Made by a program: the position numbers and the translations under genes. A DNA stretch of 64,000 bases from Escherichia coli (GTDB taxonomy: Bacteria; Pseudomonadota; Gammaproteobacteria; Enterobacterales; Enterobacteriaceae), in the NCBI RefSeq assembly GCF_011045215.1, contig NZ_CP049201.1. One strand, 5' to 3'. This document shows, piece by piece, positions 3,176 to 60,145 of the stretch. The first letter of the stretch is position 1. Each line of letters opens with the position of its first letter. Under the pieces are notes generated by a model, which worked only from the letters and a program-made list of their open reading frames with translations, had not been told where the DNA came from and did no database searches.

Positions 3176-4501
3176 TTATTTGACTAATGAAAATAGATCA
3201 TTGAGTGATTCGCTCATCGACGGATGAGTAAATATCTGATCGCGTAATATGCTATAAGGCAGCCCGGCATCCATCACCATTTTCACTATATTAATCATCT
3301 CGTGGGAGTCAACACACAGCAGTGATGCCCCTAATATACGTTGGGTTTTATTATCAACAATCGCTTTTAATACCCCACGGGTATCGTTCATCACTCTGGC
3401 GCGCGGAATTGCAGCTACAGGCAATGTCACCACCTGAATATCAGCACCACTCTCTCTGGCTTGTTCTTCTGTCATACCAACCCTGGATAGGGGCGGTGTC
3501 ATAAATACGGAATAAGGCACATTTTTCCGATCATCAGTACTACGTTTGCCTTCACCCAGTAACTCATCACGTACAATGCGGTAATCATCCAGTGATATGT
3601 AAGTAAATTGCAGCCCGCCGGTAACATCTCCCATCGCCCAAATATTGTCTGCGGTGGTATGTAATCGCTTGTCAACGACAATTGCCCCGCGCTCGTTTAC
3701 TGCGATACCGGCATTTTCTGGATGTAACGAAGCGGTAGCCGGTTGACGACCGGAAGCTATTAACAGTGCATCCACCGCCAGTTGGGCGTGCTCGCTATGC
3801 ACTTGCACTTGATTTTCATGGTGACTGATTCGCTCCACATGGGCATTGAGGATAATATCGACGCCCTGATCGCGTAAAATCGTCGCGATATTATCAGCAA
3901 TATCCCGTTCTTCCCGAGGCAAAAACAGTGAAGCTGCTTCTAAAATGGTTACCTTGCTGCCAAAATTAGCGAACATAGAGGCGAACTCAACGCCAATATA
4001 TCCGCCGCCCAAAATACCTAAATGCCCAGGCAATTCTTTTAGATTAAGTAATCCGGTGCTGTCATATACTCCTGGCGTGGTGGTAATTCCAGTAATTGGC
4101 GGAACCACGGTTTGTGCACCGGTATTAATAAAAATTTTCTCGCCATGAATTTCCAGATTTCCCTCAGGCCGATGAACACGCAGGCTATGATTATTGATAA
4201 ACTCCGCCTGGCCGTCGATCACGTCGATATTGGGCATATCCGCAAGATTATGAAAATTCTTATTACGTAAAAAATTAACCACTTCATTTTTACGCTGTAT
4301 GGCACGGACAAAATCTGTGTGCTGCTGTGCGTCATGAACCAATGTTTTGGTTGGGATGCAGCCGATATTAATACAGGTCCCGCCATACATTGCATTTGAT
4401 TGTTCGATGAGAGCCACTCGCCAACCTGCTTTTGCCAGCGTGACGGCTAATGTTTTTCCAGCCTTGCCAAAACCAATAATCACTGCCTGATATTTATTCA
4501 T
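3176..4501 (-). CDS. rclA: RclA, FAD-dependent pyridine nucleotide-disulfide oxidoreductase
   Basis: ORF 3176..4528; start at ATG 4501 (MNKYQAVIIGFGKAGKT, Rossmann GxGxxG), 441 aa; redox-active CxxxxC motif (GGTCINIGCIPTK). Confidence 0.95.
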   Translation of the reverse strand: MNKYQAVIIGFGKAGKTLAVTLAKAGWRVALIEQSNAMYGGTCINIGCIPTKTLVHDAQQHTDFVRAIQRKNEVVNFLRNKNFHNLADMPNIDVIDGQAEFINNHSLRVHRPEGNLEIHGEKIFINTGAQTVVPPITGITTTPGVYDSTGLLNLKELPGHLGILGGGYIGVEFASMFANFGSKVTILEAASLFLPREERDIADNIATILRDQGVDIILNAHVERISHHENQVQVHSEHAQLAVDALLIASGRQPATASLHPENAGIAVNERGAIVVDKRLHTTADNIWAMGDVTGGLQFTYISLDDYRIVRDELLGEGKRSTDDRKNVPYSVFMTPPLSRVGMTEEQARESGADIQVVTLPVAAIPRARVMNDTRGVLKAIVDNKTQRILGASLLCVDSHEMINIVKMVMDAGLPYSILRDQIFTHPSMSESLNDLFSLVK

Positions 4502-5581: not shown

Positions 5582-6107
5582 ATAAAACCGCCAGAAATCA
5601 GGGCAAAGATAATCCGCATTCCGGGAGTTGTGAGCCTTTCAACTATTTCTATTTCCAACGGTGGTTTGGGCTTTATATATTTTTTTCTGATGGACTCTAG
5701 CTCAGTTTTTAAATAAAAATGCAAACTAAATTGTTTCAATTAAATAAAATCCCGACTATTACTTGATACGTGATTATTGTCGGTGATTTTTTTGTACACC
5801 ATCAGTGTATATCTCAACAACCCCTGAATAAGTAGCTCTGAATAGGTATAAGGGATGTAGCCATTTTTAAATGGATTTCTTATGCCAAAAATGATCGTCG
5901 ATTTCCCCATAAAATGTGAGCGATGCCGAAAGAAATAAAATTAGTTATTGCATTTGACGTTTGGATGAAAGATTATCATTTGTCATACAAATGAGGGGTG
6001 GTATGTTGCTAGCCAATTAAAAAAGAACGCCATATTTATTGATGATTGATCCCCCGGTGGGGGGAAACATCGGGCATAAATGGGCATGAAGTAATGGAGT
6101 ATTAGTT

Positions 6108-24254: not shown

Positions 24255-24715
24255 ATGCCGGATGCGGCGTGAACGCCTTATCCGGCCTACAAGTGGCGCA
24301 AGAATTTGTAGGCCTGATAAGCGTAGCGCATCAGGCATTTGTCACCATTGCCTGATGCGGCGTGAACGCCTTATCCGGCCTACGAGTGGCGCGAGAATTT
24401 GTAGGCCTGATAAGCGTAGCGCATCAGGCATTTGTCACCATTGCCGGATGCGGCGTGAACGCCTTATCCGGCCTACGAGTGGCACGAGAATTTGTAGGCC
24501 TGATAAGCGTAGCGCATCAGGCATTTGTCACCATTGCCGGATGCGGCGTGAACGCCTTATCCGGCCTACGAGTGGCACGAGAATTTGTAGGCCTGATAAG
24601 CGTAGCGCATCAGGCATTTGTCACCATTGCCGGATGCGGCGTGAACGCCTTATCCGGCCTACGAGTGGCACGAGAATTTGTAGGCCTGATAAGCGTAGCG
24701 CATCAGGCAATTTGG
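24255..24715. repeat. REP/BIME array, about 5 tandem units of 93-94 bp
   Basis: Unit gccggatgcggcgtgaacgccttatccggcctacgagtggcgcgagaatttgtaggcctgataagcgtagcgcatcaggcatttgtcaccatt recurs starting near 24258, 24351, 24444, 24538 and 24631. Confidence 0.9.
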
Positions 24716-38911: not shown

Positions 38912-39838
38912 TGTCGGATGCGTCGCGTGGCGCATCCGACAGTTGTGCGCAGATGCCTGATGCGACGCTGGCGCGTCTTATCATGCCTACAGGCCTGAAC
39001 CGTAGGTCGGATAAGGCGCTCGCACCGCATCCGACACCGTGCTCAGTGCCTGATGCGACGCAGGCGCGTCTTATCATACCTACAGGCCTGAACCGTAGGT
39101 CGGATAAGGCGCTCGCGGCGCATCCGACACCATGCGCAGATGCCTGATGCGACGCTGATGCGTCTTATCATGCCTACAGGCCTGAACCGTAGGTCGGATA
39201 AGGCGCTCGCGCCGCATCCGACACCATGCGCAGATGCCTGATGCGACGCTGATGCGTCTTATCATGCCTACAGGCCTGAACCGTAGGTCGGATAAGGCGC
39301 TCGCGCCGCATCCGACACCATGCGCCGATGCCTGATGCGACGCAGGCGCGTCTTATCATGCCTACAGGCCTGAACCGTAGGTCGGATAAGGCGCTCGCAC
39401 CGCATCCGACACCGTGCTCAGTGCCTGATGCGACGCTGATGCGTCTTATCATGCCTACAGGCCTGAACCGTAGGTCGGATAAGGCGCTCGCGCCGCATCC
39501 GACACCATGCGCAGATGCCTGATGCGACGCTGATGCGTCTTATCATGCCTACAGGCCTGAACCGTAGGTCGGATAAGGCGCTCGCGCCGCATCCGACACC
39601 ATGCGCCGATGCCTGATGCGACGCTGGCGCGTCTTATCATGCCTACAGGCCTGAACCGTAGGTCGGATAAGGCGCTCGCGCCGCATCCGACACCGTGCGC
39701 AGATGCCTGATACGACGCAGGCGCGTCTTATCATGCCTACAGGCCTGAACCGTAGGTCGGATAAGGCGCTCGCGCCGCATCCGACACCATGCGCCGATGC
39801 CTGATGCGACGCTTACCGCGTCTTATCATGCCTACCCA
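38912..39838. repeat. Large REP/BIME array: about 10 tandem units of 93-94 bp between prpE and codB
   Basis: Unit gcctgatgcgacgctg[g/a][c/t]gcgtcttatcatgcctacaggcctgaaccgtaggtcggataaggcgctcgcgccgcatccgacacc[a/g]tgcgcagat recurs starting at 38955, 39048, 39142, 39236, 39330, 39423, 39517, 39611, 39705, 39799; each unit holds two opposed REP palindromes. Confidence 0.9.
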
Positions 39839-42554: not shown

Positions 42555-42640
42555 TTTATGCCGGATGCGGCGTGAACGCCTTATCCGGCCTACGTAGAGC
42601 ACCGAACTCGTAGGCCTGATAAGCGTAGCGCATCAGGCAA
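42555..42640. repeat. REP pair (BIME) between codA and cynR
   Basis: gccggatgcggcgtgaacgccttatccggcctac ... gtaggcctgataagcgtagcgcatcaggc. Confidence 0.85.
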
Positions 42641-42652
42641 TTGTGTCAGTGG

Positions 42653-43552
42653 CTACCGTGATTCATTCCCGCCAACATCCGCGCATTCCTCCAACGCCAT
42701 GTGCAAAAATGCCTTCGCAGCGGCAGTCTGCCAGCTATTTTTCCGCCGCAACAAAACCGCCGTTCTCTCCAGTAGTGGCGGGGCAAGAGAAATAGCTTTA
42801 AGCCCGTCATGTTGTGTGGCAATCGCTGCTGGTAACAATGTGGAAAGGGAAGTGCGGCGAATCAGCTCCAGAACCGCGCTAATTGAGTTCGCCTCAATTA
42901 CCACCTGTGGATGCAGCCCCGCTTTCTCGCAGTAGTGGTCAATTTGCTCTCTGGTGGCAAATTCCGCGCTGAGCAGTACCAGTTTTTCATCATGCAAGCG
43001 ACTCAACGCCACCTGTTCATGGACTGCCAGCGGATGATGTTGCGCCACGACTAACGCTAAACTTTCTGTCAGTAAAGGAATTGCCTCCAGCTCCGGCGAA
43101 TGCACAGGCGCGAAGGCAATCCCAACGTCCAACTCGTCGCGGCAAAGCATATCCTCGATTTTCTCCTGCGACATTTCCTGTAGCTGGAGCGTGATGCCGG
43201 GATAGCGCGCATAGAAATCCGCCATTAAGGGGCCGATAAAGTAGCTCGTAAAGGTGGGGGTGACGGCGATACGCAGCGATCCTCGCGTCAGATCGGCAAC
43301 ATCATGAATCGCCCGTTTACCCGCCCCCAGTTCCTGTAACGCCCGGCTGGCGTACTGTCGCCAGACTTCTCCTGCATCAGTGAGACGAATCGTTCGCCCG
43401 CTACGGTCAAACAGCGGCACGCCTAAACTCTCCTCTAACTGGCGGATCTGCTGGGAAAGCGCAGGCTGGGAGACGTGCAACGCACTGGCGGCACGGGTGA
43501 AGCTGCCATGTTCAGCCACGGCAAGAAAATAATTGATATGTCGAGAGAGCAT
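42653..43552 (-). CDS. cynR: LysR-family activator of the cyn operon
   Basis: ORF 42653..43576; start at ATG 43552 ([41 protein letters not shown]), 299 aa; divergent from cynT. Confidence 0.95.
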
Positions 43553-43661
43553 TCGCCAACCTATAAGTAAATCCAATAGAACTCATCATAAATGAGACTT
43601 TTACCTTATGACAATCGGCGAGTAGTCTGCCTCTCATTCCAGAGACAGACAGAGGTTAACG

Positions 43662-44321
43662 GTGAAAGAGATTATTGATGGATTCCTTAAATTCCAGCGC
43701 GAGGCATTTCCGAAGCGGGAAGCCTTGTTTAAACAGCTGGCGACACAGCAAAGCCCGCGCACACTTTTTATCTCCTGCTCCGACAGCCGTCTGGTCCCTG
43801 AGCTGGTGACGCAACGTGAGCCTGGCGATCTGTTCGTTATTCGCAATGCGGGCAATATCGTCCCTTCCTACGGGCCGGAACCCGGTGGCGTTTCTGCTTC
43901 GGTGGAGTATGCCGTCGCCGCGCTTCGGGTATCTGACATTGTGATTTGCGGTCATTCCAACTGTGGCGCGATGACCGCCATTGCCAGCTGTCAGTGCATG
44001 GACCATATGCCTGCCGTCTCCCACTGGCTGCGTTATGCCGATTCAGCCCGCGTCGTTAATGAGGCGCGCCCGCATTCCGATTTACCGTCAAAAGCTGCGG
44101 CGATGGTACGTGAAAACGTCATTGCTCAGTTGGCTAATTTGCAAACTCATCCATCGGTGCGCCTGGCGCTCGAAGAGGGGCGGATCGCCCTGCACGGCTG
44201 GGTCTACGACATTGAAAGCGGCAGCATCGCAGCGTTTGACGGCGCAACCCGCCAGTTTGTGCCACTGGCCGCTAATCCTCGCGTTTGTGCCATACCGCTA
44301 CGCCAACCGACCGCAGCGTAA
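43662..44321 (+). CDS. cynT: Beta-class carbonic anhydrase
   Basis: 219-aa ORF from GTG; beta-CA zinc ligand motifs (CSDSR, HSNCG). Confidence 0.95.
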
Positions 44322-44333
44322 CCTTATTTTTAA

Positions 44334-44822
<489 letters not shown>

Positions 44823-44827
44823 CAGCC

Positions 44828-46009
44828 ATGCGCAACCATCAAAAGACGTTCACGATACTGCTGGTTCTGGTGCTGATTGGTCTTAATATGCGACCTCTGC
44901 TCACCTCCGTCGGGCCACTGCTACCGCAATTGCGCCAGGCAAGCGGAATGAGCTTTAGCGTGGCTGCCCGGTTGACCGCTCTGCCGGTGGTTACCATGGG
45001 CGGGCTGGCGCTGGCCGGAAGCTGGCTTCATCAGCATGTCAGCGAACGTCGCAGCGTCGCCATCAGTTTGTTACTGATTGCCGTCGGTGCATTGATGCGT
45101 GAGCTTTACCCCCAAAGTGCGCTGCTGCTTAGCAGCGCACTGCTCGGTGGGGTGGGGATCGGCATCATTCAGGCGGTGATGCCTTCGGTGATTAAACGGC
45201 GGTTTCAGCAGCGCACGCCACTGGTGATGGGGCTGTGGTCCGCGGCTCTGATGGGCGGCGGTGGGCTTGGTGCCGCCCTGACACCCTGGTTAGTTCAACA
45301 TAGCGAAACCTGGTATCAAACACTCGCCTGGTGGGCGCTGCCTGCCGTTGTTGCGCTCTTTGCCTGGTGGTGGTGAAGCGCCCGCGAGGTCGCCTCTTCC
45401 CACAAGACAACAACCACTCCGGTTCGCGTGGTTTTCACTCCTCGCGCGTGGACGCTGGGTGTTTACTTCGGTCTGATTAACGGTGGTTACGCCAGCCTGA
45501 TTGCCTGGTTACCCGCCTTCTATATTGAGATTGGTGCCAGCGCGCAGTACAGCGGTTCCTTGCTGGCATTGATGACGCTTGGGCAAGCCGCAGGAGCTTT
45601 GCTGATGCCTGCTATGGCTCGCCATCAGGATCGGCGCAAACTTTTGCTGTTGGCACTGGCGTTACAACTGGTGGGTTTCTGCGGCTTTATCTGGCTGCCG
45701 CTGCAATTGCCGGTATTGTGGGCGATGGTGTGTGGTTTAGGTCTGGGCGGCGCATTTCCGCTCTGTTTGCTGCTGGCTCTCGATCACTCTGTGCAACCGG
45801 CTATTGCTGGCAAGCTGGTGGCGTTTATGCAGGGGATCGGTTTTATCATCGCCGGGCTTGCCCCGTGGTTTTCTGGCGTGCTGCGTAGTATCAGCGGCAA
45901 TTACCTGATGGACTGGGCGTTTCATGCGCTGTGCGTCGTTGGGCTGATGATTATAACCCTGCGTTTTGCACCAGCACGTTTTCCGCAGCTGTGGGTCAAA
46001 GAGGCATAA
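44828..46009 (+). pseudogene. cynX: MFS cyanate transporter cynX, interrupted by an in-frame TGA at 45374-45376
   Basis: ORFs 44828..45376 (182 aa, ...ALFAWWW*) and 45428..46009 (193 aa) lie in the same frame (offset 600 nt); the 51 nt after the TGA continue in frame as SAREVASSHKTTTTPVRVVFTP, the contiguous CynX sequence. Confidence 0.7.
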
Positions 46010-46019
46010 TGCGACGCTT

Positions 46020-46095
46020 GTTTCTGCGCTTTGTTCACGCCGGATGCGGCCTACGTAGATCACTGAATTTGTAGGCCTGATAAGCGAAGCGTATC
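46020..46095. repeat. REP pair between cynX and lacA
   Basis: gccggatgcggcctacgtagatcactgaatttgtaggcctgataagcgaagcgtatcaggc. Confidence 0.8.
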
Positions 46096-46111
46096 AGGCA
46101 ATTTTTATAAT

Positions 46112-46723
46112 TTAAACTGACGATTCAACTTTGTAATCTCTGAAATAATATTGCTTATCCCGGTCGTTTATTTCGCGAATAACCCGACAAGGAACGCCAG
46201 CCGCCACGACGTTTGGTGGAATGTCTTTTGTGACGATACTACCCGCGCCAATAACAGAATTATCCCCGATGGTGACGCCTGGATTAATAACCACATGACT
46301 TCCGATCCAGACGTTATTGCCAATCGTTATCGGAAAAGAGTACATCTCACCGTTTTTTCTCAATTCATGGTGTACAGGGTGTCCCGTAACGGAAAGAGTA
46401 ACGTTGGGTGCAATCAGTACGTTATCACCGATTGTTACCGTGTAGTCATCGACAATGGTTAAATTGAAATTTGCATAAAAATTGCGGCCTATATGGATGT
46501 TGGAACCGTAAGAGAAATAGACGGGGGGTTCTACCCAGGCGTTTTCCCCTACCGTGGCAAACATTTCTTTAATCAGGCTTTCTCTTTTTTCAACTTCTGA
46601 TGGATGCGAGTGATTAAACTCATACATTAACGTTTTCCCACGAAGTCTTTTTTCCGGTAAGCCTTCGCACATATCGGTAAATAGCTTGCCTGCTTTTATT
46701 CTTTCTGTCATCGACATGTTCAT
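46112..46723 (-). CDS. lacA: Galactoside O-acetyltransferase (hexapeptide-repeat acyltransferase)
   Basis: ORF 46112..46774; start at ATG 46723 (MNMSMTERIKAGKLFTDMCEGLP), 203 aa; the upstream in-frame extension (MRRERLIRPT...) is REP-derived. Confidence 0.95.
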   Translation of the reverse strand: MNMSMTERIKAGKLFTDMCEGLPEKRLRGKTLMYEFNHSHPSEVEKRESLIKEMFATVGENAWVEPPVYFSYGSNIHIGRNFYANFNLTIVDDYTVTIGDNVLIAPNVTLSVTGHPVHHELRKNGEMYSFPITIGNNVWIGSHVVINPGVTIGDNSVIGAGSIVTKDIPPNVVAAGVPCRVIREINDRDKQYYFRDYKVESSV

Positions 46724-46749
46724 TGCGATCATTCCGTTATGATATGTTG

Positions 46750-46779
46750 GTCGGATAAGGCGCTCGCGCCGCATCCGAC
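46750..46779. repeat. Single REP palindrome between lacY and lacA
   Basis: gtcggataaggcgctcgcgccgcatccgac. Confidence 0.8.

Positions 46780-59784: not shown

Positions 59785-60145
<361 letters not shown>

Follow-up and report, generated by a model that had tools for sequence, protein, structure and literature searches.

Intact CynX of E. coli is an MFS transporter of the CynX/NimT family, recorded with 384 aa in UniProt (P17583) and with 393 aa in RefSeq (e.g. WP_001244048.1), and its gene stands in a cynR-cynTSX-lacA synteny like that of the locus described here. The protein is called a putative cyanate transporter in E. coli, K-12 included (PMC6627978). A broken form of the gene is also on record: the E187* allele, a single-base GAG>TAG change, belongs to a widespread clone (169 index blocks and 3 complete genomes; L012, L013) and carries the RefSeq label of a cynX pseudogene with an 'internal stop', as in Res13-Lact-PEB17-18 (NZ_CP062855.1, IMP99_RS18445). 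Another related system is experimental: in the split lacY experiments, N6 and C6 fragments were reportedly produced separately, each with its own expression signals.

We examined cynX in a 64,000-nucleotide stretch of E. coli DNA (the window) and compared it with these systems. The conceptual CynX of the window is identical to the common intact protein but for L48R and Q183*; its frame is interrupted, and the normal start yields only the N-terminal six helices. Like the E187* allele, the cynX of the window has one nonsense codon in the region of TM6 and the central loop and stands in the same operon context, with cynT and cynS intact (the half-ORFs of E187* are 186 and 193 aa long). However, E187* is an independent event on another haplotype (26 nucleotide differences in cynX), it arose by one base change and not by a tandem CA>TG as in the window, and it is widespread, whereas the allele of the window is recorded once elsewhere. 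The break in the TM6-TM7 central cytoplasmic loop is also shared with split lacY, but the second half of cynX, unlike the lacY fragments, has no detectable ribosome-binding site or promoter. We conclude that cynX in the window is very probably a young loss-of-function allele and an ordinary pseudogene.

The cynX frame, its start and its neighbours

The cynX frame, read from the ATG at 44828, contains a single in-frame TGA at 45374-45376, corresponding to codon 183, as seen in the sequence and its translation. The features of the locus, in window coordinates, are the following.

42653..43552, minus strand: cynR, LysR-type regulator, intact (NF008416, 510.9 bits)
43662..44321, plus strand: cynT, carbonic anhydrase of 219 aa, intact; protein identical to WP_000658652.1 of the relatives
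44352..44822, plus strand: cynS, cyanase of 156 aa, intact (TIGR00673, 243 bits)
44828..46009, plus strand: cynX pseudogene of 393 codons, interrupted by one internal stop (translation, family profiles and the RefSeq frame of relatives)
44828..45373, plus strand: truncated product of 182 aa with TM1-TM6, the N-terminal MFS half (translation, hydropathy and profile)
44855..44857, plus strand: codon 10 of cynX, ATA (Ile), where the K-12/O157 annotations start with ATG and give the 384-aa form (alignment)
45365..45373, plus strand: (TGG)3 run, read as WWW, abutting the stop on its 5' side (sequence)
45374..45376, plus strand: premature stop TGA at codon 183, ancestral CAA (Gln), through C>T at 45374 and A>G at 45375
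45377..45427, plus strand: 17 central-loop codons, SAREVASSHKTTTTPVR, left untranslated past the stop (translation and hydropathy)
45428..46009, plus strand: remnant C-terminal half, TM7-TM12; the ORF is mechanical, opens at an internal GTG and lacks both a Shine-Dalgarno sequence and a promoter

An earlier note, made from the sequence alone, had claimed that cynX is split by this TGA into two ORFs of the same frame, and the translation confirmed it: the mechanical ORFs 44828..45376 (182 aa, from ATG) and 45428..46009 (193 aa, from GTG) are in register (45428-44828 = 600), and the truncated first half has the C-terminal end ...FAWWW. The 17 codons between the two ORFs do read as uninterrupted CynX, as the note had it, but the string that it gave for them also took in VVFTP, the opening five residues of the second ORF.

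When the stop was replaced by Gln, the repaired protein exceeded the cutoffs of both family models: NF007256 'cyanate transporter' gave 765.7 bits with a cutoff of 312, and TIGR00896 CynX/NimT gave 470.4 bits with a cutoff of 406. The two halves aligned to positions 4-182 and 202-393 of the 393 positions of the NF007256 profile. RefSeq annotates the same frame as a 393-aa cynX in relatives. The genomic context also fits the CynX/NimT family according to NCBIfam and synteny, with cynX as the last gene of cynTSX and cynR divergent, but the uninterrupted 12-TM ORF of the family is broken by the TGA at codon 183. Homology lies in one frame on both sides of the stop, as in a pseudogene by internal stop in the sense of PGAP.

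The hydropathy profile placed TM5 at ~133-152, TM6 at ~166-182 and TM7 at ~207-232, separated by a hydrophilic, net-positive TM6-TM7 trough at residues 183-206 (4 K/R against 1 D/E). The TGA stands just past TM6, where this central cytoplasmic loop has its first residue. The description of an otherwise intact MFS gene cut around TM5-6 was therefore upheld, with the break mapped after TM6.

We then considered the start codon. RefSeq annotations are split between 393-aa and 384-aa forms of cynX, and the start at 44828 used in the earlier note agrees with RefSeq practice. An exact 74-bp match with ATA at codon 10 was found in 315 complete genomes in which cynX is annotated as intact with 393 aa; this argues against codon 10 as the sole start, and we took ATA at this codon for a common polymorphism and rejected an ATG>ATA change as the primary lesion. 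No Shine-Dalgarno (SD) sequence was found before either candidate start (44820-44857). Since the ATG at 44828 lacks such a sequence and lies only 5 nt past the stop codon of cynS, cynX is probably translated by termination-reinitiation coupling to cynS, judging from this layout.

The gene order around cynX (codB-codA, cynR on the minus strand, cynT-cynS-cynX on the plus strand, lacA-lacY-lacZ-lacI on the minus strand, mhp) was as in E. coli. All of these neighbours of cynX, with cynR, cynT, cynS and lacAYZI among them, were full length with zero internal stops, and the intactness of cynT and cynS upstream, also claimed previously, was borne out by family profiles and by their full-length frames without internal stops. 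CynR showed 4-7 residue differences from the O157 proteins (including A177V and C178H) and CynS showed Q60L relative to O157 (codon 60, 44529-44531); these differences are common to other lineages and not private, and thus represent ordinary polymorphism. Tandem arrays of palindromic REP/BIME-type units were also observed in the window, at 24256-24714 (4.9 x 93 bp), at 38931-39835 between prpE and codB (9.6 x 94 bp) and at 59785-60129 before mhpT (3.4 x 101 bp), and a REP-like element was present in the cynX-lacA spacer (46030-46100). Multiple offset BLAST matches suggest that relatives have a different number of copies in the prpE-codB array.

Ancestry of the stop codon and private changes of the lineage

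The earlier note had proposed an alignment to cynX of other E. coli genomes. We compared codon 183 with O157:H7 TR01, a second O157:H7 strain, a K-12-like strain and nine further public loci, and found CAA (Gln) in 12+ of 12+ comparators. The ancestral codon is thus CAA, and to become a stop it had to undergo two neighbouring transitions, CA>TG, for which TAA or CGA are the possible one-step intermediates. A probe of 81 bp with the stop at its centre found matches in 4,233 complete E. coli genomes, the best of them at 79/81; consequently, neither TGA nor a one-step intermediate occurs in any of the ~4,230 complete genomes of E. coli with a cynX gene, and the TGA is specific to the lineage of the window. 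A search for the pattern TGGTGGTGGTRAAGCRCCCGCGAGG (TRA at codon 183) gave 0 matches in GTDB species-representative genomes and JGI metagenome contigs.

The exact 182-aa product was recorded once elsewhere, in a Logan contig of the run SRR11014969 (locus L004). No record was found of a protein with R48 and Q183, that is, of an intermediate with L48R and without the stop, and no paper was found that mentions either the strain or SRR11014969.

Among 5,426 complete RefSeq E. coli genomes, none was nearly identical to the window. Its best matches were phylogroup-E-like strains, with 98.5-99.3% identity depending on the segment, and the best-matching strain changed from segment to segment (O157:H7 TR01, O55:H7, PapM-32-1 and OkiPb01695), which suggests a source lineage that is rarely sampled and recombinationally mosaic. 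Comparison of 42613-46778 with seven relatives revealed eight positions private to the window: three in cynR and one in cynT, all synonymous, none in cynS or lacA, and the remainder in cynX, where they comprised the two bases of the stop and the two following changes.

44969..44971, plus strand: L48R, CTG>CGG, a private and non-conservative change near the start of TM2 (comparison with relatives)
46007..46009, plus strand: natural stop switched from TGA to TAA, private (comparison with relatives)

No exact match to the L48R site was found in ~4,210 complete genomes, and none to the TAA natural stop of cynX in ~4,200. The earlier account of the break was accordingly refined: the stop consists of two adjacent base changes and is accompanied by the private L48R in cynX. 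Counted as events, those that alter a protein or a stop were 3 out of 3 inside cynX and 0 out of 4 outside (Fisher p = 0.029, with very small counts), a contrast that is suggestive of relaxed constraint on cynX in this strain.

An intact protein that differs from the conceptual CynX of the window only by L48 and Q183 was common (70 index blocks), and the DNA encoding it showed 7-12 further differences from the cynX of the window, all of them synonymous. A common, near-identical protein with only synonymous differences in its DNA indicates that cynX is normally under purifying selection and that the break is recent. Apart from the stop and L48R, cynX was without further decay.

If 7-8 private substitutions fell independently in 4,166 bp, any two of them would be adjacent with a chance of ~1%; thus, one tandem-base event is a likelier origin than two separate changes, and we infer that the double substitution at codon 183 arose at once. 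The change from TGG TGG TGG CAA to TGG TGG TGG TGA lengthened the TGG periodicity by two bases, which would fit transient slippage within the repeat, followed by realignment, as the source of CA>TG. Two other templates were considered and rejected: no other copy of the new 13-mer GGTGGTGGTGAAG exists in the window for ectopic templating, and an imperfect inverted repeat (45327-45339 / 45377-45389) accounts for at most one of the two changes by quasi-palindrome templating.

Consequence of the stop and alternative readings

On the pseudogene reading, the tandem CA>TG would have turned the CAA of Gln183 into an opal stop where TM6 gives way to the central loop, and translation would end there with, at most, the 182-residue N-terminal half of a 12-helix MFS transporter. 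In MFS transporters the substrate path runs between the N and C domains, and therefore the six-helix N half alone should be inactive. The stop should have no polar effect on cynT or cynS, because cynX closes the operon and the next gene, lacA, is convergent. The regulator, carbonic anhydrase and cyanase are intact and should still allow the detoxification of cyanate in the cytoplasm, and CynX-mediated cyanate transport is probably the sole loss.

Among the alternatives, partial function of the broken gene is the one that survives best, and we still consider it improbable. It could arise in two ways, either through UGA readthrough by tRNA-Trp, producing a Q183W CynX, or through a restart at the GTG at 45428, after which the halves, of six helices each, would come together as a working transporter. 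Several properties of the locus agree with it: the gene is split exactly at the domain boundary, where TM6 passes into the central loop, the frame of the C-terminal half is undamaged, cynX itself lacks an SD sequence and is probably translated by coupling after cynS, and TGA is a leaky type of stop, UGA being the leakiest stop codon in E. coli. Moreover, lacY expressed in two segments reportedly gave a working transporter in the hands of Bibi and Kaback (1990). The expression of the second half, however, finds no basis at the locus: the GTG at 45428 has no SD sequence, with an anti-SD duplex energy of -2.4 kcal/mol (vs -6.5 for cynT and -6.9 for cynS), and the 51 nt that separate it from the stop upstream are a long gap for re-initiation. 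There is also no promoter for the C-terminal half, with 0 promoter-like sites in 45300-46200. The stop allele is conserved nowhere, and thus gives no hint that a split arrangement has been selected; L48R, which accompanies it, is suggestive of relaxed constraint, and an intact C-terminal half is equally expected of a young pseudogene. Measured against a naturally split two-gene transporter, the second half has neither an RBS nor a tight stop-start coupling, and the split is not conserved in a clade, with the allele only in the window and in one SRA run. That a working CynX is still made, in two pieces or as Q183W, and that the locus is a natural counterpart of the split lac permease, is in our view quite improbable.

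A sequencing or assembly error, with CAA as the true codon and cynX intact, was the second option of the earlier note, alongside real inactivation. The allele is shared by no complete E. coli genome and its site lies within a short TGG repeat, and short repeats of this kind are a context of systematic errors on some platforms. Nevertheless, a Logan contig of SRR11014969 of 4,166 bp was identical to window 42613-46778 at 4,166 out of 4,166 positions, with no mismatches or gaps, and included the TGA, the L48R and the TAA natural stop, although the run may be from the same isolate. This match makes a strong case against an assembly artefact, and it represents a second isolate only if the run is independent. 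Since a separate read-level assembly, made by a different pipeline, contains the TGA with no base changed, an error is very unlikely. Furthermore, a two-base substitution without an indel is not typical of long-read error, and L48R and the switch of the natural stop in the same gene fit a real lineage history. Real inactivation is the option supported by the CAA ancestry, by the intact cynR, cynT and cynS, and by this contig.

Programmed recoding of the TGA, as selenocysteine or by regulated readthrough, has nothing in its favour other than the codon being UGA and is effectively refuted: an Rfam scan of 44700-46150 (E<=10) gave no SECIS and only three matches with E>1, all to unrelated families, the 76 nt from the stop folded no better than shuffled sequences (z = 0.14) with no SECIS-type stem-loop downstream, the downstream sequence is the unchanged wild type of thousands of CAA genomes, and no homologue has TGA at position 183 or shows a conserved UGA or Cys.

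Recurrent loss of cynX in E. coli

Loss of function of cynX is not confined to the window. The gene was absent (no megablast match) in 1,167 out of 5,426 complete E. coli genomes (about 21%). Ten cynX matches were located on plasmids, indicating that the cyn/lac region is occasionally plasmid-borne. We searched for other breaks through a gene-call look-up of the C-terminal ORF and through the 90%-identity cluster of the N-terminal fragment; the proteins from other broken cynX genes were P0002, P0004, P0014 and P0015. There are many of them, and they arose independently. In particular, we identified W168* (TGG>TAG) in GCA_907172765.1 and two SRA runs (L005/L007/L008), W162* (TGG>TAG) in ERR7420527 (L009), the E187* allele described above, and a stop after residue 255 in 37 contigs. 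Frameshifts and a 23-aa in-frame deletion were found as well.

The apparent clustering of nonsense codons at 162-187 was rejected as a hotspot and attributed to ascertainment bias, because the look-up with the 193-aa ORF retrieves only stops located between the last upstream start candidate and codon 201. In another locus (L006, ENA ERZ28574373 scaffold_3482, ~5782-5881), the N-terminal part of cynX was rearranged: ~241 bp corresponding to window 45068-45308 were swapped for ~100 bp of unaligned sequence, and no N-terminal ORF was called. In L010 and L011, cynX looked frameshifted.

Q183* by a tandem CA>TG is unseen in complete genomes, while the phenomenon itself is well known and routinely annotated. 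The cynX-lacA locus of EHEC tolerates insertions and is treated as neutral for fitness in vitro and in vivo (PMC6705877), and the loss of cynX in the window may be neutral. For annotation, the locus should be given as one cynX pseudogene with an internal stop and not as two MFS genes, and the rare TG allele could act as a clone-specific marker. The prediction for the strain is that cyanase and carbonic anhydrase remain while the dedicated putative cyanate permease is lacking, and it adds one more data point to a picture of cynX as a dispensable gene that E. coli has lost repeatedly.
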